Source: an uncultured archaeon (lineage in GTDB: Archaea > Asgardarchaeota > Lokiarchaeia > Sigyniarchaeales > Promethearchaeaceae). From it: DNA of 26,410 nt. Shown one piece after another: positions 1,539 through 12,103 of the stretch; within the stretch, counting starts at the first letter, position 1, and every line of letters begins with the position of its first letter. The notes below the pieces were generated by a model that saw nothing but the letters and a program-made list of their open reading frames with translations, did no database searches and was not told where the DNA came from. The position numbers and the translations under genes were made by a program. The stretch lies in NCBI GenBank assembly GCA_964426185.1, contig CAYRPF010000041.1:1-26410 (forward strand), given 5' to 3'.

Positions 1539-2414
1539 TTATTGTTTCCTTTCTCTATACCGTTTAAAATGACCAAAACCCGCTGTTCTTCCGTTTCCTG
1601 TATTCATATCCTCTCCAAAACGGGTTAGAATATCCAACCATTTTCCCATCGGATTCTCTACATCTTCGTTAAGGTATTTAATCCAACCCATGGCGCCGGC
1701 GAATTTAACATTCTTTCCCATGCTCCAGGCATGAGTTTTCATTTGATAGGATGACACGGAAACATTCTTTGAAACCCATTCAAAGAATTCAGTAGGAACG
1801 GCCATTTCAGTGCCGGCAAAGACACTATCCCATAATTTAGCCAGATTTGGAAAGAAATATTCAGGTAACGGGAACCGCATTGTGGAATTCCTCCCCCTTA
1901 TGCTGAAGGCGGTGGGTGAGAGAAATTTAACGGATAAACTCGGTATAATCGTAGCTGATTGAACCAGATCCTTAAGACTTTTCTGCTTAATCTCGACTTG
2001 AGTAATAACTGCTTTTTGCATGGCATATTGAATGGTTGATTCTTTCTGCTGCAGGATAAAGTCTAAAAGGGTGCGCGAAATGTTATCGTTCAGTGAAGAA
2101 ATTATATATGTGATTTTTTCCACCTTAGAATTCCTTGAACCAGTAGAATTGGTAGAGCTGCGGAAACGGTTATTTCCGGACCTACGATTCAACTGCTGGG
2201 GATAATGAAGCTTTTGTTGAAGTGCATAGTCCAGAACAAACAAAGGAGAATCTTTCGGTTGTTTTTGATGAAGTAAATTGCCAATGGTGGCATTATATTG
2301 TTTCAACCAATCCATGAAGATGCCTCGGAAAATATATGCGTAAGGTTTTAAGAAAAACGGACCGGTTGACTCGTGTGGGTAGAGGGTAAAAATAAACTGA
2401 GTTAGCTGTGTCAT
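1539..2414 (-). CDS. cas6: CRISPR-associated endoribonuclease Cas6 (type I-A/I-B/III-like, not Cas6e/Cas6f)
   Basis: C-terminal Gly-rich loop TGNGRTAGFGHF, the motifs FLSPTAF, RFPLPEYFF..LAKLW and FAGAMGWIKY, and an N-terminal AYIFRGIF helix. 291 aa. Confidence 0.9.
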   Translation of the reverse strand: MTQLTQFIFTLYPHESTGPFFLKPYAYIFRGIFMDWLKQYNATIGNLLHQKQPKDSPLFVLDYALQQKLHYPQQLNRRSGNNRFRSSTNSTGSRNSKVEKITYIISSLNDNISRTLLDFILQQKESTIQYAMQKAVITQVEIKQKSLKDLVQSATIIPSLSVKFLSPTAFSIRGRNSTMRFPLPEYFFPNLAKLWDSVFAGTEMAVPTEFFEWVSKNVSVSSYQMKTHAWSMGKNVKFAGAMGWIKYLNEDVENPMGKWLDILTRFGEDMNTGNGRTAGFGHFKRYRERKQ

Positions 2415-2505: not shown

Positions 2506-2738
2506 TGCAATTTTTTAACAATAGCCATATTATGATGCAATTATTAATCGAAATTTCTTTTACGAAAAGAGAGAGAATTGAACTTCTGAAAAAGGAAAAA
2601 TTTAGGGTTGCTGAAATTAAAATCAAGCCAATTGAGACGATTAGTGATTAAATTAATGGATTTTGGGGCTTTGAACTCTCTAATTTGATGATTTATTATT
2701 TAATATATTCCATAGCTTTTCTTCGAAGCCTTGTTCAA
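2506..2738. repeat. 233-bp direct repeat, copy 1
   Basis: Identical to 3372-3604 except for one base (C2729 vs T3595); offset 866 bp. Confidence 0.97.
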
Positions 2739-2747
2739 GTTCACAAA

Positions 2748-2834
2748 ATTATTTTCGCACATGTGGGGGTGTACCAGAACGCTGACCATTCAGCCAGTGT
2801 CTCAATGTATTCTCCCCACGCATAGGGGTGTACC
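2748..2834 (+). CRISPR. Degenerate CRISPR mini-array: 2 repeats and one 33-bp spacer (2776-2808)
   Basis: R1 2748-2775 ATTATTTTCGCACATGTGGGGGTGTACC; R2 2809-2834 ATTCTCCCCACGCATAGGGGTGTACC. The inferred consensus ATTCTCCCCACGCATGTGGGGGTGTACC forms a CCCCAC/GTGGGG hairpin. The 61-nt start-to-start period is typical of type I-E-like repeats. Lies about 330 bp from the cas6 start. Confidence 0.75.
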
Positions 2835-3086
2835 AAGTTACCTTTGCTTATGCTAGAAGTATGGATCTGGAAGAATCGATTTTAAATTTAGATATGCAAG
2901 GTAGTTTTTCATAAAAAATACACGTATTGACTTAATAAATATAAAAATTGAGAAAAAGGAAAGAAATCACGTAAAATTTAATAGATAGTTTGAATTAAGT
3001 AAGATAAGGAAATTTTTCTAATTTTAAATAATCATCAAACAGTCGTTTTTCGGCGTTTGACACTAATTATTTATGAGTTGAATTAT

Positions 3087-3233
3087 ATGACACAAGAACA
3101 ATGGATTATAGAAGAACATCAACGTCGTGATCAAGAACTCCTTGATCAACAATATGAAAATGCAATTATGCGAAAAGTCGTAAATCAATCATTATTAATT
3201 TCTAAAAAAAACGCTAGAGCATATAGTGGGTAA
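3087..3233 (+). CDS. Putative 48-aa small protein (MTQEQWIIEEHQRRDQELLDQQYENAIMRKVVNQSLLISKKNARAYSG)
   Basis: ATG..TAA ORF below the track cut-off. TATA-like TTTTAAATA at 3022-3030, inverted repeat at 3035-3060, T-rich tract directly after the stop. Confidence 0.5.
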   Translation: MTQEQWIIEEHQRRDQELLDQQYENAIMRKVVNQSLLISKKNARAYSG

Positions 3234-3325
3234 TTCTTTTTTTCTCAAAATTAACTAAATTTTAACATGGTAGATTAAATGTGCTATAGAGAAAGATTTC
3301 GATCATTTATCTTCCTGTTAAAATC

Positions 3326-3344
3326 CAAGTTCACAAAATTATTT
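3326..3344. repeat. 19-bp direct repeat CAAGTTCACAAAATTATTT (other copy 2736-2754)
   Basis: Exact match. The first copy runs into CRISPR repeat 1. Confidence 0.9.
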
Positions 3345-3371
3345 CCCTCAAAAAGAAGAGGTATATTTTTT

Positions 3372-3604
3372 TGCAATTTTTTAACAATAGCCATATTATG
3401 ATGCAATTATTAATCGAAATTTCTTTTACGAAAAGAGAGAGAATTGAACTTCTGAAAAAGGAAAAATTTAGGGTTGCTGAAATTAAAATCAAGCCAATTG
3501 AGACGATTAGTGATTAAATTAATGGATTTTGGGGCTTTGAACTCTCTAATTTGATGATTTATTATTTAATATATTCCATAGCTTTTCTTCGAAGTCTTGT
3601 TCAA
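3372..3604. repeat. 233-bp direct repeat, copy 2 (includes the last ~19 codons of the SMC-NYN gene)
   Basis: Matches 2506-2738 at 232/233 positions. Confidence 0.97.
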
Positions 3605-6551
3605 AATAAACTTGATCTTGTAAAATATTATATCTGATGGAGTGATTTTCAATGAATTCTTTCAAATTAGGGTATTTTTTCCGGTATTCATTATAATAAT
3701 CATTTGTTATTATATAACCGTTATTTCTTTTAGCAAAACTTATGATAAACCAATCATCATCTTGACCTTTTGGTGCTTGATTCACATTTGATTGCTTTAG
3801 TAATGTATTAAATGTTCCGACTTCGATTTCTGCTATATTATGCCGAATTCCTGCACCAAAAAGGATTAATATCTTTTCTTCTGGAATACCGAGTTCAATT
3901 AATCTATTTTTACATTTTATTACATCTGAAATTCTCGCAAATTTTGAATTAGTGTTATTTCTAGCAATATTTGATCCATCAAGTATGAAAGAATAATCTA
4001 ATTTTGGAGCAATTTTTGAAACGCTTAAATCTTTTCTTTCCCTTGATATTAGGTTTGTGGCATTTAATGCCAAGGTTAATGTTTTTTCATATGGGAAATG
4101 AATTTCCTGATAATATCCTAATTCTTTTACTTGTTTGTAAAAATCTGAAACGTCTAGAAATTTTTTTTGCAGGAATGCTAGTCTTTCTGAATTTCCAATT
4201 TTCTCTTCTGATCTAATGGAATTATTGAAAGCAGAGTGAATAGCAGCGATATCTTCTTTTATCGGAAGGATATTAATAAATTTTGCAATATCACCATCTT
4301 CAATCTTCTCTCGCTGAAATTTGTACAAATCCATACTGTGTTCATGATCCAATAACGCATATGATTCATCTAAAATAACAACGTTATATTTTGCAACATT
4401 AGAAGCGATTGAAATAATAGCTCGGCAATATGCGTATGTTTTTTCACCACTCGAGAAATCATTTAAATCTCTTTTTTCTTCAAATTCTTCTTTGGTTTCA
4501 AAGATGATGGTTTTTTCTGTTATATCAAATCGTTTGATTTTTCTATATTCCTTAAATACGTAATCAAAAAACTCCTTTTTACTATAGATATTCCGAAATA
4601 TTTGATCAAATTGTGAAGTAATTAATTCTTTATTCTTCAAATTCTTTGGTTTCGTTCCTTTTATTATTCGAGAAATATCTTCTTGAAGATCTTTCAATTT
4701 TTTGTATAACTTTTGAGTGTTTTTCTTATAATTTGAAAATTTATCTTTGATTTTAGAAACAAATGTAAGAAAATCTCCACAATTTTTAAATTTAAATTGT
4801 CGTGCTGATTTCTCTACTTCTTTATTTAAAATCTCAATTTCTTTTTTGATGCTTTCAATTTTTTCCTTAACATTTTCCAACTTCTTTTTATGTAGTATTA
4901 ATTTTTCATATTCTTTATTGTGTTCCTTTTCGATTTTATTTAAGATAATTTCGCATTCATCAACAGTTGAAATCTCTGATTTAATTTCCATTTTTCGAAG
5001 ATCACTTTTTATAGCAATTTCTGTAGGACTTTCATCAATTTTTTGCTTGATTTCTTCTAGATTTTGAAGTTTACTAATAATATCTAATTGCTCTTCTTTC
5101 TGATTTTTGATAAGTTCTTCAATTTGTTTCTCTTTAGTTTGAAATTTTTTATAACTTTCTTCTAAATCCAAAAATTCGTCAATACTTCTGTGAAAACCTT
5201 TTTGTTTCTTTTCAATTGAGCTAATTTTTTCTGATATTTCAGCATAATTGGATAATTTTTCTAATATATCTTTTTTATATCGAATAGAATTATTCAATTT
5301 CTTTACTTTGTCTTGATAATCCTTCAATGCAGGTTTTTCTTTGAAAATCAAACTTGATGAATTTAAAGTGTTATAAAGATCACTAAAAGAGAGTTTAATC
5401 TCAGTTTTTGGATAAGATGTATGAATAAATGATAAAATTTTTTCATCTTTCCACTTATTAGAACAAGCTTGACTACAAATATCCCTTAGTCTTGTGATGT
5501 ATGAATTAATTTTTAAAATTCGATTATTCTCGTTATTTAATTGTTCAATTTTTCTTTTTATTTCCATTATTTCTTCTTGCAGATCTTTTATATTGTTAGA
5601 AATTTCATTTTGCGTTTGTGTAATTGAATCTAAAGAAATATTATATTGCGTTTTAAGAATTTCAATTATATTTTCTTGTTTACTTTGCAACTTTTGAAGT
5701 TTGGTTAATATAATTTTTTCATCTTTGTTTAGATTCTTATCAAAATCTTTTATTTTAGTTTGGATCTCTTGTAGATTAAGGTAATTCTTATTTATTTGTT
5801 CTTGAATTGTTTTTGATTGCTCTTTTTTTAAAATTAACTGATTTTCTATATCTTCAGGATTATTTTGCAAAATAAATTTAAGTTTTTTAAGCATTTCCAA
5901 TTGATTTTCATGAAATTTTATCTTGCTTGTTCGTCTTTTTATACTATTTAATAAATCATCATGATTATCCAGAAGTTCATTATAAGTTTGTTGTAATTTT
6001 AAATAATTTTCCAAATCTGCTTGTCTTGAGGTATTTTTAAACCAATTTTCAAAATTTTCTAGAAATTCCATCTTTTTTTCTAGTTTCTGGAGTTTCTCTT
6101 CAATTTTACTTTTAAAAATATCTTGAAAAAAAGTAATTTGTTGATGTAAACTTTCATTTCCCCTTATTGTTCTTACATAGATTACCTTTCGGAATTTTTG
6201 ATAAGATATCTCTGAACCGTTTTCATAAAATTTACCTAAAGTCATAGGATTTACTCGATTAAAATTTTTATCGTATTTCCACAAATAGGGTTGCAAATGG
6301 ACCTTATAAGTTTCAGACTTTTCGGTGAGAAATTGAATAGTGCAATCCTTGATGATTTGAGAGTATTTTGAAAATTCACCTTCATTTTTAAAAGTATATT
6401 CTCCTGCTGCAATTTCCATCAATGTGGATGCCATTGATTTCCCTACACCATTTTTTCCATGAATTGTGATTATATTTTCAGGTAAAATCTTGGGGATTGT
6501 TGATCTTCCCGTTGTTTTAATTTCAATCCCGATCATTTCGGTCATCTTCAT
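3546..6551 (-). CDS. Rad50/SMC-like coiled-coil ABC ATPase fused to a C-terminal Zc3h12a/Regnase-type NYN (PIN-fold) ribonuclease
   Basis: Walker A GKNGVGKS (aa 32-39), ~480-aa coiled-coil region with central CSQAC (359-363), signature FSSGEK (699-704), Walker B/D-loop VVILDESYALLD (724-735). NYN motifs FILDGSNIA (855-863) and DDDWFIISFA...GYIITNDYYNEY (931-956). Confidence 0.88.
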   Translation of the reverse strand: MKMTEMIGIEIKTTGRSTIPKILPENIITIHGKNGVGKSMASTLMEIAAGEYTFKNEGEFSKYSQIIKDCTIQFLTEKSETYKVHLQPYLWKYDKNFNRVNPMTLGKFYENGSEISYQKFRKVIYVRTIRGNESLHQQITFFQDIFKSKIEEKLQKLEKKMEFLENFENWFKNTSRQADLENYLKLQQTYNELLDNHDDLLNSIKRRTSKIKFHENQLEMLKKLKFILQNNPEDIENQLILKKEQSKTIQEQINKNYLNLQEIQTKIKDFDKNLNKDEKIILTKLQKLQSKQENIIEILKTQYNISLDSITQTQNEISNNIKDLQEEIMEIKRKIEQLNNENNRILKINSYITRLRDICSQACSNKWKDEKILSFIHTSYPKTEIKLSFSDLYNTLNSSSLIFKEKPALKDYQDKVKKLNNSIRYKKDILEKLSNYAEISEKISSIEKKQKGFHRSIDEFLDLEESYKKFQTKEKQIEELIKNQKEEQLDIISKLQNLEEIKQKIDESPTEIAIKSDLRKMEIKSEISTVDECEIILNKIEKEHNKEYEKLILHKKKLENVKEKIESIKKEIEILNKEVEKSARQFKFKNCGDFLTFVSKIKDKFSNYKKNTQKLYKKLKDLQEDISRIIKGTKPKNLKNKELITSQFDQIFRNIYSKKEFFDYVFKEYRKIKRFDITEKTIIFETKEEFEEKRDLNDFSSGEKTYAYCRAIISIASNVAKYNVVILDESYALLDHEHSMDLYKFQREKIEDGDIAKFINILPIKEDIAAIHSAFNNSIRSEEKIGNSERLAFLQKKFLDVSDFYKQVKELGYYQEIHFPYEKTLTLALNATNLISRERKDLSVSKIAPKLDYSFILDGSNIARNNTNSKFARISDVIKCKNRLIELGIPEEKILILFGAGIRHNIAEIEVGTFNTLLKQSNVNQAPKGQDDDWFIISFAKRNNGYIITNDYYNEYRKKYPNLKEFIENHSIRYNILQDQVYFEQDFEEKLWNILNNKSSN

Positions 6552-6849
6552 TCCTCCAACTTATTCAAATACTCAAGAAAATCATCATAGGAAACTCTCG
6601 AAAAGTTATTAAATTCGATTATAGAATCAATGAATTCTTGGAAAATGCTATTTAATTCAAAGATTTGCATTGCTTTTTGAATGAATTCATCTGTAATTTC
6701 TTCATAATCCAAAATAAACACCTCTGTTTGTCTTGTTTCTTGTATTTATTTTGATATTCATACAAAAGAATATTGATTTTATTCCTATTAATACATATAC
6801 TTTCGATGATCCATTGAAATTTAGATTGATTTGTCTGAGATATATTCAT
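6548..6849 (-). pseudogene. ~100-aa middle protein of the operon, split by a single -1 frameshift (real or sequencing error)
   Basis: The 65-aa ORF 6652..6849 continues in the adjacent frame (IQETRQTEVFILDYEEITDEFIQKAMQIFELNSIFQEFIDSIIEFNNFSRVSYDDFLEYLNKLEE*). It ends at a TGA (6550-6548) that overlaps the SMC ATG (ATGA). Restoring one A near 6745-6747 gives a 303-nt ORF. Confidence 0.75.
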
Positions 6850-7450
6850 CAGCTTTCAATGGTATTAGTTTATCTGCTTCAATAATACCAAGCTTTCTTG
6901 CTTCAAGATTTATCTTCCACAGTTCAGAATGGACTAAGGTGTTTTCTCTCGCATCTGTTTCATTGAACATTCCTGGTAAACGTAGATTTCCTATGTTGAT
7001 GCTATCTATTACTCCATAAACAAAATTCGACGAGATTATTGCTCGTTTCTTTCCAAATTTGACAACTTTAAATTTAATTTGTGGTTTGAATTGATGACAT
7101 TTATATTTAAAATGAAAGACATGATTTCCTTCAATATACATTGGCATCCCACAATACATGCACCTTTTTAAGTAACCCTGAGTGCGAAGATATCGATTTT
7201 CTTCTAATAAATAATATTTAAATTTCGTATAACCATATCGTAAGGGATATCCAGTACTACATTGGAATTTTACAATATCTTGATTTTCTTTTTCTATTTG
7301 AATCAAATAACTACTTATTCTTTTAATTGAAAATTCCTCTAGAAAAATATTTCCTCTTTCTAAAAAGAAATCAGATTGAATATAATCAAATATTTCATAA
7401 GATGAACAAGGTGAGAATTCTTGCAAAATTGAGAGTATTAACTCTTTCAT
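6821..7450 (-). CDS. Hypothetical protein with predicted N-terminal winged-helix and a Cys/His Zn-finger
   Basis: MKELILSILQEFSPCSSYEIFDYI...SIKRISSYLIQIEKE pattern (wHTH-like) and CMYCG...HFKYKC. First gene of the operon; overlaps the next gene by 29 bp. Confidence 0.65.
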   Translation of the reverse strand: MKELILSILQEFSPCSSYEIFDYIQSDFFLERGNIFLEEFSIKRISSYLIQIEKENQDIVKFQCSTGYPLRYGYTKFKYYLLEENRYLRTQGYLKRCMYCGMPMYIEGNHVFHFKYKCHQFKPQIKFKVVKFGKKRAIISSNFVYGVIDSINIGNLRLPGMFNETDARENTLVHSELWKINLEARKLGIIEADKLIPLKADEYISDKSI

Positions 7451-7483: not shown

Positions 7484-7498
7484 TATATAAATTATTTC
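7484..7498 (-). promoter_or_regulatory. Putative archaeal BRE/TATA promoter of the SMC-NYN operon
   Basis: Minus strand reads GAAATAA-TTTATATA 34-48 nt upstream of the ATG at 7450. AGGGGAT RBS-like motif at 7456-7462. Confidence 0.5.
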
Positions 7499-7778: not shown

Positions 7779-7830
7779 CCTTCAGTTAGGTAAATGGAAT
7801 TCCTTCAGTTAGGTAAATGGAATTTCTTCA
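7779..7830. repeat. 23-bp tandem repeat CCTTCAGTTAGGTAAATGGAATT x2 plus partial third unit
   Basis: Exact copies at 7779-7801 and 7802-7824, followed by TCTTCA. Confidence 0.92.
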
Positions 7831-7997: not shown

Positions 7998-10643
7998 ATG
8001 ACTAGTTCGGGAAATTTGGATCTCAACTTTTCATCGGGTATCCCTGCGTTAGATGACGTCCTTCATGGCATTTTACCAGGAGACAATGTGGTGCTTAAAG
8101 TCGACGTGATTGAAGAATTTATCCCATTTGCGCATCGCTTTGCTCATTATTGCCACGAAAATAGAAAAGATTTGATCTATTTTCGTTATGCTCAACATGA
8201 TCATTTGATACCAAAGGATGTCAAAGCCCATATCTATGAACTTTCTCCAGAAAAAGGTTTTGAAAATTTTATTTCTCAAATAATTAGCGTGATTGAAGAA
8301 TTTGGGCGTGGGGCATGTTATATCTTTGATTCCCTCAGTGATTTATCTGTCGGGTGGTATTCAGATGTCATGTTAAGCAATTTTTTTATGCTAACTTGCC
8401 CTTATCTTTTTAAATTTGACACGGTTGCCTATTTTGCAGTATTTCGGAACCGTCATCACCAAAACACTATTACTCATATTCAAAATACCGCCCAAGTCGT
8501 CCTTGACATATATGAAAATAGCAGCAACCTCTATATTCGTCCTGTCAAAGTCTATAATCGATATAGCCAAACACTTTATATGCTCCACAAATGGTACAAC
8601 ACCCCAGAATTAGGTGAAGTTGTCAAACCAGTAAGGCAGAGCGCAATTATTGCAAAAACGTTAGAAAAACGATTACACCCATGGCTCGATGCAACCAATC
8701 GACGACCTGATTTCTGGCATATTACCTTCAATCGAGCTCAAGAAACCTTAGAAGGAATTTTATTGGGAGAAATTTCTCCAGTTCAAGCCCAAACCTTTAA
8801 AAATCGTTTATTGCAGATGGCAATAGTGCGTGATGACCTCCTCTTTATTTTAGCGGTTCAATATTTAGAATTAGAAGATCTGTTAGAGATCGGGAAACGG
8901 TTAATCGGAACGGGGTTTATTGGAGGCAAATCTGTTGGGATGATTTTAGCTCAAGCAATTCTTCGTAAAACGGATCCTAAATGGAATGACATCTTGGAAC
9001 CCCAAGACTCTTTTTTTATCGGATCAGAAGTCTTTTACACTTACCTGGTGGTAAACGATTGTTGGTGGATGCGCCGGAAACTCTCCCACCATGCAACATT
9101 TCTTGAAGGAGTTGAAGCGACCCAACAGAAAATTCTCTCGGGTGAATTCCCCGATTATATCATTCAACAATTTCAAAGTATGCTAGAGTATTTCGGTCAA
9201 TCACCTATTATTGTCCGTTCCAGTAGTTTACAAGAAGACGCCTACGGAAATTCTTTTTCAGGGAAATATGAAAGCATTTTCTTAGCGAATCAAGGACCTC
9301 CAGAAGAACGTCTAAAAAATTTTCTCCAAGCAATCAAAACGGTATATGCAAGTACTATTAGTCGGGATGCTTTGACCTATCGAAAGAGCAGAGGGTTATT
9401 AGAATCTGACGAACAAATGGCAATTCTTGTCCAACGAGTTTCTGGAGCAATTTATGGCGATTATTTTATGCCACAAGCCGCAGGGGTCGGATTTTCATTT
9501 AACCCTTATGTTTGGGATCATCGGATTGACCCAAAAGCGGGTGTCTTACGCCTTGTCCTTGGATTAGGAACACGTGCCGTAGATAGGACAGATGATGACT
9601 ACACACGCGTGGTTGCTTTAAGCAATCCAAAACTCCGGGTAGAAGATAAATTTGACGATATTCGGAATAATTCACAACAACGTTTAGATGTTTTAGACCT
9701 TCGTGTAAATCGGTTCATTACATATCCATTTCGTAAACTACTGGAAAAATTAGAAGATTTTCCCATTGAATTTTTTGCCATTCATGACGTAGAATTGATA
9801 GAACGGATGGAGAAACTTGGAAGAGAAGTGAAATTTGCGTGGGTACTTACATTTGATAATCTACTCACAAAAACTCGATTCACTGAAGATATGCGAGATA
9901 TGTTGCGAACTTTGCAAAATGCATATCAATGTCCCGTGGATATCGAATTTACAGTGAATTTTTACAATGAAAAGGATTATAATATAAACCTTCTTCAATG
10001 TCGACCGTTCCAAATAAAGCGTGAAATCAAAAAAATTGAATCTCCTGGTCAAATTGACGAAAAAGATTTAATGTTAGCTACGGAAGGACCAATTATTGGG
10101 ACTAGTCTTGCAGTCACTATCGATCGAATTATATATGTCGTCCCTTCAGTTTATGGAAAACTCCCGATTCGAGAACGTCACGCAGTTGCACGATTGATTG
10201 GAAAGATAAATCAAACCCCGGTAGGTGGTTCAGGGCGAGTCCTTCTTTTAGGGCCTGGAAGGTGGGGTACGTCTTCACCAAGTTTAGGGATCCCCGTGAA
10301 TTTTGCCGAAATTAATAATGTTTCGATCATTGGTGAAATGGCTGAAATGCATGAAGGATTAATCCCGGATCTCTCGTTAGGTACCCATTTCTTCAACAAC
10401 TTAGTCGAATTAGATATGTTATATTTCGCCATTCACCCAGAAAAGGCGAATAATTTTATCAATCGAGCGCTGTTTGAACAAAGTAAAAATCGATTGACAG
10501 AACTCCTCAGTGGTGTTGAAAATTGGAAAGACGCAATCAAAGTCATTGATGTCGCCGACGCTTTTCCAAATAAGGCCCTTGCTGTAAATTTCAACACAGT
10601 GAATCAAAAAGGTTATTGTTACTTGATGGATAGAGCAAAGTAA
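7998..10643 (+). CDS. PEP/pyruvate-binding (PPDK_N, ATP-grasp) domain protein with N-terminal degenerate KaiC/RecA-like domain
   Basis: N-terminal FSSGIPALDDVLHGILPGDNVV and IFDSLSDL. PPDK_N motifs IGGKSVGM, PIIVRSSSLQEDAYGNSFSGKYES, MAILVQRV, PVDIEF and LLQCRP. C-terminal GPGRWG and GTHFF. Confidence 0.85.
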   Translation: MTSSGNLDLNFSSGIPALDDVLHGILPGDNVVLKVDVIEEFIPFAHRFAHYCHENRKDLIYFRYAQHDHLIPKDVKAHIYELSPEKGFENFISQIISVIEEFGRGACYIFDSLSDLSVGWYSDVMLSNFFMLTCPYLFKFDTVAYFAVFRNRHHQNTITHIQNTAQVVLDIYENSSNLYIRPVKVYNRYSQTLYMLHKWYNTPELGEVVKPVRQSAIIAKTLEKRLHPWLDATNRRPDFWHITFNRAQETLEGILLGEISPVQAQTFKNRLLQMAIVRDDLLFILAVQYLELEDLLEIGKRLIGTGFIGGKSVGMILAQAILRKTDPKWNDILEPQDSFFIGSEVFYTYLVVNDCWWMRRKLSHHATFLEGVEATQQKILSGEFPDYIIQQFQSMLEYFGQSPIIVRSSSLQEDAYGNSFSGKYESIFLANQGPPEERLKNFLQAIKTVYASTISRDALTYRKSRGLLESDEQMAILVQRVSGAIYGDYFMPQAAGVGFSFNPYVWDHRIDPKAGVLRLVLGLGTRAVDRTDDDYTRVVALSNPKLRVEDKFDDIRNNSQQRLDVLDLRVNRFITYPFRKLLEKLEDFPIEFFAIHDVELIERMEKLGREVKFAWVLTFDNLLTKTRFTEDMRDMLRTLQNAYQCPVDIEFTVNFYNEKDYNINLLQCRPFQIKREIKKIESPGQIDEKDLMLATEGPIIGTSLAVTIDRIIYVVPSVYGKLPIRERHAVARLIGKINQTPVGGSGRVLLLGPGRWGTSSPSLGIPVNFAEINNVSIIGEMAEMHEGLIPDLSLGTHFFNNLVELDMLYFAIHPEKANNFINRALFEQSKNRLTELLSGVENWKDAIKVIDVADAFPNKALAVNFNTVNQKGYCYLMDRAK

Positions 10644-10687
10644 ACCAACAATTTTAAGAATCACTTCATGATAGCCGTACCTTGTAA

Positions 10688-12103
10688 TTAAAAATAGTAT
10701 ACAGGAATCCATAGCATGGTAAAATCATCGTGTTTTTCAATTTTAAAGACATTTAAGGTAGCAACAAAAGCCAATTTAATTCCGTACTCCCTAATGAATG
10801 AATAGAATCCGCGTGAAACCTTTTTTCCACCGAGTTTTACTTCAATTGGAATAAGAAGAGAATTACTTTTACTCACTAAAACAAAATCTACTTCAGTTTT
10901 GTTAGTGGTGCGCCAATATTTTACTTCGTAACCTTCCAAATATGGCATAAGTTTTTTCAATAATTCTCCAAATACAAAATTTTCTAGTAAACACCCCTTT
11001 TCGGGGCCGCTCCGATTATCAAACGGTGTGAAATTAGATATCAGAGCATTTCTAATCCCATGATCAAGAAAGTAGATTTTTTCTTGCTTTCTTAATTCAT
11101 TTCTCAAATTTTTGTGATATGGACTAAGTAAATGGATGATATAACTGTGTTGCAAAATTTCAAGATATGAATCAACAGTATTTCGTGATAGATGGAGCTC
11201 TGAAGATATTTCTGAATTTACTACAAAACCACCAGGTTGAGTTGCTAAAAGCGTGCTTAATTTGAAGAACTTAGTGCTATCACGTATTTTGAAGAATGAA
11301 ATGATGTCTTTTTCTAAGTATAAAGTAATTATGTTTTGAAGAATCGTTTTTTTCAATTCACCATCTGATGTTTTAATTACTTCAGGATATCCCCCCCAAA
11401 TCATGTATTCTTTTAAAAGTGCAATTACTTCATCGACAAAGGCGGGTTTGGGCATTTTGTCAATTATTTCATGGAGTAAATCATAGTTTTTTTCTTTATC
11501 TTTATCTTTAAGCAATTCGAGAGTTTTAACAATTTTTTCAAGCCCCTTTTTTCGATTGTCAATTATTTTACGAAGCCCAGTATCCCGTGCTTCAACAAAT
11601 TCACAAAAAGAGAAGCTATAAAGGTTAAAAAGGAAAAGGCGTCCTACCAACGAAGGTAGAATTCTTTTTCTAATTTCCAAAGAAGATGATCCCGAAAAAA
11701 TAATTTTAATGTGCGGGAATTCATCATATAGAAATTTTAGAATCATTCCAGCATTTTCGACATTTTGTATTTCATCCAAAAACAAATACAGTCTATTCTC
11801 ATTTCCACCATATCTTTCAATAATTGCCAATGGATTTTGTTGTAATTCTTCTCTCAAATTCATAAAATCGAGGTTTAGAAATACTATTTTTATTTTAGAA
11901 GAAGTATTTTCTAATTTTTTTGGGTTTTCAAAATCATTACAATTTCCTACTTTTTTTAGATTTTCCAATTTTTCTTGCAAAATCTTCAACAATGTAGTCT
12001 TACCAACTTGCCTTGCGCCTCTAAGCCCCAAAATTTCCTTTCGATCGATGAATTTCATCAATTTATTCAGCAAATCCCTACTATACGGCATATTTTCATA
12101 CAT
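10688..12103 (-). CDS. AAA_14 ATPase with DUF4143 / C-terminal PD-(D/E)XK-like domain (COG1373 family)
   Basis: GARQVGKTT, LFLDEIQ, SGSSS, GGYPE, KIYFLDHG, LLENFV, YWRT..EVDFV..IPIEVK. Confidence 0.9.
   Translation of the reverse strand: MYENMPYSRDLLNKLMKFIDRKEILGLRGARQVGKTTLLKILQEKLENLKKVGNCNDFENPKKLENTSSKIKIVFLNLDFMNLREELQQNPLAIIERYGGNENRLYLFLDEIQNVENAGMILKFLYDEFPHIKIIFSGSSSLEIRKRILPSLVGRLFLFNLYSFSFCEFVEARDTGLRKIIDNRKKGLEKIVKTLELLKDKDKEKNYDLLHEIIDKMPKPAFVDEVIALLKEYMIWGGYPEVIKTSDGELKKTILQNIITLYLEKDIISFFKIRDSTKFFKLSTLLATQPGGFVVNSEISSELHLSRNTVDSYLEILQHSYIIHLLSPYHKNLRNELRKQEKIYFLDHGIRNALISNFTPFDNRSGPEKGCLLENFVFGELLKKLMPYLEGYEVKYWRTTNKTEVDFVLVSKSNSLLIPIEVKLGGKKVSRGFYSFIREYGIKLAFVATLNVFKIEKHDDFTMLWIPVYYF

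Follow-up and report, generated by a model that had tools for sequence, protein, structure and literature searches.

An Asgard three-gene module that joins an SMC-like ATPase to a predicted NYN RNase, and its possible role in immunity

A role in sensing foreign DNA is becoming apparent for ATPases of the SMC (structural maintenance of chromosomes) type, in bacteria as parts of Wadjet and Lamassu, and in humans as Smc5/6 and Rad50. Wadjet and Lamassu are the precedents for an immunity that combines a coiled-coil ABC ATPase with a nuclease (PMC10586767; bioRxiv 10.1101/2025.04.02.646746). Lamassu has been described as a constant core with modular effectors, and its small component LmuC as too divergent for sequence methods (bioRxiv 10.1101/2025.04.02.646746). 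In another ATPase-nuclease pair, the PtuAB of Retron-Eco7, host tRNA-Tyr is reported to be degraded on infection (PMC12673091). Here we analyze a stretch of 26,410 nucleotides (nt) from an uncultured Lokiarchaeial archaeon (contig CAYRPF010000041.1 of assembly GCA_964426185.1, positions 1 to 26,410), which we call the window, and in it a trio of genes, A, B, and C, that occupy the minus strand from 3546 to 7450. The largest, C, encodes an SMC-like ATPase that carries an NYN RNase domain at its C-terminal end.

The trio is a real and conserved three-gene module, restricted to Asgard archaea. We give a probability of roughly 0.6 to the explanation that it is an Asgard-specific SMC-like immune sensor-effector, directed against viruses or other mobile DNA. 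A preliminary description of this DNA, made from the letters alone, had seen in it a coupled operon resembling Lamassu/ABC-3C, with features of Wadjet. We found no description of the module in the literature searched on Asgard NYN proteins, on NYN-SMC defence, and on ABC-3C, a search that left the Krishnan et al. 2020 classification outside its scope; and in the parts of two Asgard defensome papers reached by a term search (PMC11291487, PMC13700489) the module is not mentioned.

The three genes and their products

The presence of three same-strand genes was claimed in the preliminary description, and both the listing of open reading frames (ORFs) and a direct reading of the strand agree with it. 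Gene C (3546..6551) encodes 1001 residues, laid out as a coiled-coil ABC ATPase fused to an NYN RNase. The N-terminal half of the ATPase head (residues 1-130; 6162..6551) has a Walker A motif HGKNGVGKS and a Q-loop ESLxQQ. It is followed by an ascending coiled coil (residues 135-362; 5466..6149), as assigned from the AlphaFold2 secondary structure, by an apex domain of 43 residues made of two short beta hairpins and one helix (residues 363-405; 5337..5465), and by a descending coiled coil, also from the AlphaFold2 model (residues 406-656; 4584..5336). The C-terminal half of the head (residues 659-830; 4062..4577) carries the signature FSSGEK, the Walker B VVILDES, the D-loop SYALLD, and the H-loop EHS. 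After a linker that the model gives with low confidence (residues 835-849) comes the NYN domain (residues 854-996; 3564..3992), of the Zc3h12a/Regnase type of PIN-like RNases. All these features lie on the minus strand, as do genes A and B.

We surveyed the motifs of C in an alignment of 31 family members. The ABC motifs, from the Walker A to the H-loop, are invariant or nearly so in all 31 sequences; the Walker B reads IVILDES in most homologues, and VVILDES in the window protein. With its catalytic motifs all intact, the ATPase looks active. The AlphaFold2 model of C has a predicted local distance difference test (pLDDT) value of 81, and a Foldseek search with it finds Smc4 (E-value 3e-11), Rad50 (3e-10), Smc5/6, MukB, JetC (8e-6), and LmuB (2e-5), a structure comparison that cannot separate LmuB from other SMC-like heads. 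The protein shows the split motifs of an ABC head, a long antiparallel coiled coil between the two halves, and a head fold like that of SMC and Rad50, as well as a weak match to SbcC_Walker_B. Judged by sequence and model together, C is a coiled-coil ABC ATPase of the SMC/Rad50 superfamily. There is no SMC hinge at its apex, either in the model or in the 31-sequence alignment. Nor does the apex alignment of the same 31 sequences show a CxxC zinc hook; one cysteine there (in DICS) is semi-conserved and the second is unconserved.

The nuclease end of C is recognized by PF11977, which matches residues 856-988 with 43.3 bits (gathering cutoff 23, E = 4e-11) and which finds a match in 30 of the 31 family members. 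The other Pfam hits of C are weak and of coiled-coil type. The domain has the PIN-like fold and conserved acidic catalytic residues. It looks catalytically competent, and we predict it to be an RNase. The earlier reading of the large gene as SMC-NYN is thus confirmed by what we find in it: an N-terminal GKNGVGKS Walker A, long coiled coils, and PF11977 at the C-terminus.

Gene B (6548..6712) encodes 54 residues, with an isoelectric point (pI) of 4.05 and a net charge of -11.5; the family is acidic throughout (pI 4.05-4.65). Its start is a TTG at 6712 that follows GAGGTG, as opposed to the GTG at 6721 where the ORF listing began, and this start fits the M(D/N)YEEITD beginning of 7 homologues (26-61% identity). 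The stop codon TGA of B and the start codon ATG of C overlap as ATGA at 6548-6551, just as had been noted, and the two genes are translationally coupled by it. The junction between A and B had been misread. The 29-bp overlap that had been ascribed to the first two genes belongs to an ORF of 65 basic residues in another frame (6652..6849), which we judge not to be a gene: a tblastn search of 14 homologous loci finds no conserved counterpart of it, except alternative-frame matches over B's own DNA, and in annotated homologous loci no gene is called at its position. Because the true middle gene is the one at 6548-6712, A and B do not overlap, and a gap of 108 nt separates them. We also considered a frameshifted middle gene of about 100 residues and rejected it, since the homologues are B proteins of 54-65 residues starting with M(D/N)YEE, and since independent metagenome contigs from two runs span 6482-7010 without any indel. 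The best two DNA sequencing runs carrying the region are labelled hydrothermal vent metagenomes; among the runs listed as carrying it there is no RNA run.

B has no sequence relative in Pfam, PADLOC, or the PDB (in a profile search against the PDB nothing falls below E = 1). We ran a complex prediction of B with the head and neck of C only. It scores 0.60, against 0.01 for the best control, a level reached by 58 of 80 solved complexes and by 2 of 110 mismatched pairs, and which we rate as a weak pass. Two of the three runs agree, with a pLDDT of 80-82 for the partner; in the third this value is 50. The prediction thus gives weak support to a small accessory subunit bound at the head or neck of C.

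Gene A (6821..7450) encodes 209 residues and is basic (pI 8.8, with a family median of 9.0). It has an N-terminal winged helix (residues 1-80, a three-helix bundle with a beta wing), a beta-rich domain with a CCHC zinc site (C97, C100, H113, C118) that is invariant in the family alignment, and a C-terminal helix with a conserved SELWxIN motif. A winged helix with a zinc site is what had been proposed for the first protein, and both are there. A has no relative in Pfam or the PDB (again none below E = 1 in the profile search), and its only PADLOC matches are marginal ones to PtuB models (7 of 25 members, best E 0.0035). The modelled zinc region is all-beta and shows no helix behind its hairpins, unlike the beta-beta-alpha-metal fold of HNH nucleases. 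Foldseek finds for the A model no PDB match at E <= 0.001, only weak rows from the Fur family; a shape search of the ESM Atlas also returns Fur-family clusters, at template modelling (TM) scores of 0.33-0.46, too weak to be used. An exhaustive profile search with A brings up no more than 26 clusters out of 1.84 billion representative proteins. Both A and B represent new protein families.

Upstream of gene A, 34-41 nt before its ATG, there is a TATA-like box, TTTATATA (7484..7491, minus strand), with an A-rich stretch upstream of the box. The TTTAWATA motif occurs 9 times in the window, where 12 occurrences are expected by chance, and because it is not enriched in such AT-rich DNA the box is weak evidence for a candidate archaeal promoter, which would serve gene A and might serve A-B-C as a whole. 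Thus, of the upstream element described before as a B recognition element with a TATA box, the TATA-like sequence is there, at a frequency no higher than chance. Scans of the window for Rfam families and tRNAs found none.

Distribution, exchangeable effectors, and island setting

All named homologues of A and C are from Promethearchaeota/Lokiarchaeia, Candidatus Harpocratesius being an example. C homologues, either full-length or truncated by a contig end, are present in 8 of 400 Asgard species genomes. A is likewise found in 8 of the 400, and in 6 it lies beside C on the same contig. The discordant genomes are explained by contig truncation (G136, G138), by an orphan A (G157), and by a pseudogenised fragment of A (G164). 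A closed genome from the same genus (G135) has neither A nor C. Within the family the identity is 40-65%, with invariant motifs.

Complete flanks are available for 11 distinct loci, and in all 11 the genes A, B, and C occur together. B is directly upstream of C in every locus, and A adjoins a C-type ATPase in 15 of the 15 distinct loci that have flanking sequence. The order is A-B-C in the window, L031, L037, and L040, and B-C-A in L033, L035, L038, L039, L002, L003, and L004. This neighbourhood analysis bears out the earlier claim of a coupled unit that is inherited together, a claim which had been made to depend on whether the two small genes accompany SMC-NYN homologues elsewhere; they do. 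There are also traces of loss. The orphan A (locus L050, 7995-8600) is intact and adjoins a GIY-YIG/T5orf172 gene and sugar-modification genes, while the fragment of A in the other genome (G164:C190:9536-9775) has 7 stop codons. These two cases indicate decay or replacement of the module.

The nuclease of the module can be exchanged. In L040, C has 823 residues and no NYN, and after a gap of 24 nt there is a gene (10497-11978) for a 493-residue protein with MBL, beta-CASP, and RMMBL domains, of the RNase J/CPSF type; its precomputed Pfam list also includes Anti-Pycsar_Apyc1. In L044 (1585-2709) and L045 (2430-3365), the C-type ATPase (26-33% identity) ends at YYQE(V/I), exactly where the NYN linker begins, and this NYN-less ATPase is followed by an A-like gene and then by a conserved 374-residue protein (35% identity between the two loci). 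The 374-residue protein may be a fourth component, or an alternative effector, of a distant NYN-less subfamily; it has no Pfam match, and a feature search of the Atlas returns scores of 0.77-0.78 or less, which are uninformative. On the side of the nuclease, a 1615-residue Promethearchaeota protein (P0090), with a weak N-terminal match to a BrxC/BrxD-like P-loop, has a fused NYN that shares 49% identity with the one in C, so that the same RNase module has been reused with another NTPase. A word-based search with the NYN reached only Promethearchaeota proteins, and is uninformative on eukaryotic or bacterial relatives. Nucleases that change while the ATPase core stays the same are what marks sensor-effector conflict systems.

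The base composition sets the trio apart. Its GC content is 26.4%, where the genome averages 34.3% (with a standard deviation of 2.3% among windows of equal size), and only 0.25% of the genome windows are as AT-rich. The neighbouring PPDK_N gene has 39% GC, in agreement with what had been described as a block visibly more AT-rich than the PPDK-like gene beside it. In the window, the trio is flanked on one side by a Cas6d-like gene and a degenerate mini-array, and on the other by the PPDK_N gene and then PDC-S01. In other loci the neighbours include Cas genes, an MmeI-type restriction-modification enzyme, NucS, DpnII, TIR_2, PRTase-CE, DUF4365, GIY-YIG, AAA_16, and ParA-like genes. The GC windows and the annotation of neighbours together uphold the view of an AT-rich island set among genes of defence. 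CorA, a TM2 protein, Cas6, and PDC-S01 are common to the window and L031, its nearest relative, yet the trio is oriented differently in the two, which argues that the cassette moves as a unit within a chromosomal island.

The flanks contain a number of other features. The gene at 1539-2414 (minus strand) is a lone cas6 (Pfam Cas6, E = 3e-11; PADLOC Cas6d, E = 1e-19). There are no other cas genes in the 26-kb window, and L031 has a Cas4-like gene and a Cas2-domain gene a few kb off. Between cas6 and gene C, at about 2750-2836, there are two degenerate CRISPR-like repeats (...GCACATGTGGGGGTGTACCA and ...CCCCACGCATAGGGGTGTACCA) with one spacer; they resemble the 30-nt repeats AATTCTCCCCACGCATGTGGGAGTGTACCA on a different contig, C82, of the same genome (L042, G000:C82, 1439-1529), and the 150 nt at 2809-2958 are 91% identical to that contig. 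A 233-nt direct repeat, with one mismatch (2729/3595), occupies 2506-2738 and 3372-3604 and brackets 633 nt. Its second copy holds the last 59 nt of gene C, so that the 3′ end of C recurs 866 nt downstream. Both inner junctions (2565-3127 and 3313-3553) are covered by independent metagenome contigs, and the repeat is therefore not an artefact of genome assembly; an insertion scar or a duplication may explain it.

On the other side of the trio, a 23-nt tandem repeat, CCTTCAGTTAGGTAAATGGAATT, is present in 2.3 copies at 7779-7830, between gene A and the PPDK_N gene. The latter (7998-10643, plus strand) encodes an 881-residue protein with the PPDK_N domain, an ATP-grasp domain that binds phosphoenolpyruvate or pyruvate. 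Its 39% GC is in the top 3% of the genome windows; the gene stands between PDC-S01 and the trio, and L031 does not have it at the equivalent position. PDC-S01 (10688-12103, minus strand) is an AAA_14 and DUF4143 ATPase that matches the PADLOC candidate defence family of that name with E = 5e-91, and a homologue of it also adjoins the trio in L031. Elsewhere, L035 (12168-13625) and L037 (3331-5321) have beside the trio ParA-like (CbiA/AAA_31) ATPase genes, each with a neighbour of 189-195 residues, which may constitute a further module for defence or partition. L037 has a NucS_C gene in addition, and both loci have a DUF5615 (PIN-like) gene nearby.

What the module may do

How would such an immune system work? 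C would be motor or sensor and executioner at once, a protein that dimerises and in which each head bears a flexibly tethered Regnase-type NYN. A, with its basic winged helix and zinc site, would be the nucleic-acid-binding partner. The acidic B would sit at the head of C or at the base of the coiled coil, as an adaptor comparable to the Rad50-binding domain of Mre11, the C-terminal domain of SbcD, or LmuC; alternatively, it could be a gate over the DNA-binding surface. ATP-driven engagement of the heads would recognize a nucleic-acid structure of the invader (DNA ends, replication intermediates), as in Rad50 and Lamassu, and by joining the two NYN domains would turn RNA cleavage on, with the destruction of transcripts, and growth arrest or abortive infection, as the possible outcome. 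The steps are proposed by analogy with Rad50-Mre11 and Lamassu.

Several points count against this immune explanation. The defence function, the complex, the trigger, and the RNA substrate are all things that we infer. The ATPase heads match no defence ATPase model significantly, so that the analogy with Lamassu, Wadjet, and Rad50 is one of fold class. NYN/PIN-like nucleases serve in housekeeping RNA processing too. The association with defence islands was judged by eye from about 8 loci. The prediction of an interface between B and C is rated weak, with one of the three runs failing (score 0.05). With about 40 proteins the family is small, and metagenome-assembled genomes are its only source. 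Finally, A could be only a transcriptional regulator, as its modelled fold is like that of winged helices of the Fur and PadR types, its position relative to B-C varies, and in one case it stands alone without B-C (L050, in G157). That A is co-conserved with C down to 26% identity in C favors the role of a subunit, while the orphan and the variable position keep the regulator option.

A larger claim, which we put forward only tentatively, is that the trio constitutes an SMC-based immune family of its own beside Wadjet and Lamassu, confined to Lokiarchaeial Asgards, in which a Rad50-like motor gates a Regnase/KHNYN-type RNase, with A and B having no known relatives. In its strongest form, the claim would make this lineage of NYN effectors the prokaryotic root from which the antiviral NYN RNases of eukaryotes arose.

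Among the other explanations, the one that survives best is that the trio is a divergent but true member of a known system, either of Lamassu/ABC-3C (A being an effector-less LmuA, B the LmuC, and C an LmuB that has acquired a nuclease) or of Wadjet (a KITE, a mini-kleisin, and JetC). We consider it unlikely. The A-B-C order does parallel LmuA-LmuC-LmuB, with B in the position of LmuC directly before the ATPase, and solved structures of LmuB and JetC are among the Foldseek matches. An effector-less LmuA clade and LmuB proteins without a hook are both known (bioRxiv 10.1101/2025.04.02.646746). There are also PADLOC hits at full length: the window C matches LmuB weakly (E from 1.7e-4 to 6e-4), and among its relatives 18 of 31 match LmuB (best E 9e-9) and 20 of 31 match JetC. 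But when the ATPase heads are scanned alone, there is no match to LmuB or JetC at E < 0.1, which means that the full-length hits stem from the coiled coil, and membership by hidden Markov model (HMM) was not upheld on this ground. A and B match none of the PADLOC models for LmuA, LmuC, JetA, JetB, and JetD, and no PDB sequence, and A comes after C in about half of the loci. As for Wadjet, A has a single winged helix where a KITE has a tandem pair, B with its 54 residues is unable to bridge two heads as a kleisin does, and C has no hinge. The comparison drawn in the preliminary description thus retains the gene order (an accessory gene, a small middle component before the ATPase, and a modular effector) while membership, in Wadjet as well as in Lamassu/ABC-3C, is not supported, given the empty head-only scans, the unmatched A and B, and the missing hinge and CxxC hook. 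Its suggestion that the nuclease has moved onto the ATPase presumes a Lamassu ancestor, and no result of ours shows one.

Another explanation is that the trio is cargo of a mobile element and serves that element, by maintenance or addiction, by exclusion of competitors, or as anti-defence. The AT-rich, island-like composition would agree with it, as would the ParA-like ATPase and DUF5615 genes near two of the loci, the GIY-YIG genes next to the locus in L033 and to the orphan A of L050, and the 233-nt repeat at the 3′ end of C. We find it quite unlikely, because neither the window nor the examined flanks of the relatives' loci show a gene for an integrase, for replication, or for conjugation, because scans of IMG/VR with A and C return no relatives among 2.9 million viral contigs, and because the neighbours common to the window and L031 point to a chromosomal island. 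ParA-like genes have themselves been reported as immune components (bioRxiv 10.64898/2026.10.19.760177).

A housekeeping complex for nucleic-acid maintenance in some Lokiarchaeia (Rad50-like repair, a chromosome organiser, or RNA surveillance) seems to us very unlikely. Both the SMC/Rad50 fold class and the NYN RNases include housekeeping members, and the conservation within the family is high. On the other hand, the family is found in about 2% of Asgard species genomes, is patchy within genera, and does not occur in the closed genome of the same genus; it is located in a strongly AT-rich island; and its gene order and flanks vary by locus, its effector is swapped, and one relative is pseudogenised.

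Hardly credible, finally, is the idea that the trio assists the type I-D-like CRISPR-Cas beside it, as an ancillary, Cas6-linked RNase machine: Cas6 adjoins the trio in the window and L031, a Csc1-Cas3-Cas6 block is 4.6 kb away in L039, and the degenerate two-repeat mini-array lies between cas6 and gene C, but L033, L035, L037, L038, L040, L044, and L045 have no cas genes within 8 kb, A, B, and C have no CARF, SAVED, or other domain that senses CRISPR signals, and the orientation of the trio with respect to cas6 differs between the window and L031.

If the trio is indeed an immune sensor-effector, then an Asgard version with its own partners and an RNA-cutting effector would extend SMC sensing to the archaea closest to eukaryotes. 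It would also be a case of an SMC-like motor covalently coupled to an RNase, of which we found no example in the literature searched. The NYN fold of C is that of eukaryotic antiviral RNA decay (Regnase-1, KHNYN, N4BP1), and with the locus one can test whether this branch of eukaryotic immunity goes back to Asgard archaea.

The trio beside known systems

The eukaryotic RNases of the Zc3h12a family (Regnase-1/MCPIP1, ZC3H12B/C, KHNYN, N4BP1) degrade viral and immune-related RNAs. The NYN of C has the same acidic motifs (DGSN, DD, ND), but it is appended to an ABC ATPase, and it has none of the CCCH zinc finger, KH, or ubiquitin-binding domains of the eukaryotic proteins.

The PtuA-PtuB pair of Septu and Retron-Eco7 is similar in that an ABC-type ATPase is paired with a nuclease, and in the marginal match of A to PtuB. 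It differs in that PtuA does not have long SMC-like coiled coils, and in the modelled zinc region of A, which is all-beta.

Rad50-Mre11, or SbcCD, also has a nuclease physically coupled to the ATPase head, and is echoed in the weak SbcC_Walker_B match of C. The trio has no CxxC zinc hook and no phosphoesterase of the Mre11 type (there is no Metallophos (Mre11/SbcD) gene in the window or in 8 annotated homologous loci), and its NYN is covalently fused. Moreover, the distribution of the trio is patchy and island-like, whereas Rad50-Mre11 is a core repair gene.

Wadjet (JetABCD/MksBEFG) shares with the trio an SMC-family ATPase of comparable length, small partners that include a winged helix, and a nuclease. 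Wadjet acts against mobile genetic elements, as we infer for the trio. Unlike Wadjet, the trio has no hinge, no subunit of kleisin size, no tandem-winged-helix KITE, and no Toprim JetD. The JetC HMM hits cover the coiled coil only, and the nuclease has the fold of an RNase, as opposed to a DNA-cleaving Toprim.

Lamassu (LmuA-LmuC-LmuB, ABC-3C, DdmABC) is the closest in design. It too has a coiled-coil Rad50-like ABC ATPase, which in Lamassu is the sensor, a small middle component directly before that ATPase, a third accessory protein, a modular nuclease effector, and a place in defence islands, and some LmuB proteins also have no zinc hook. The differences are in the parts. In Lamassu the effector is the N-terminal domain of LmuA; the trio has it as a C-terminal extension of the ATPase, or else in a gene of its own, and there it is of RNase type (NYN, MBL/beta-CASP), which is not among the effectors in the Lamassu paper (bioRxiv 10.1101/2025.04.02.646746). 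C has 1001 residues against about 600 or 800 for LmuB, its heads match no LmuB HMM, and A and B have no detectable similarity to LmuA and LmuC. The trio most likely resembles Lamassu in its logic without being a member of it, and would be an apparently new form of immunity based on an SMC-like ATPase with an RNase as its effector.

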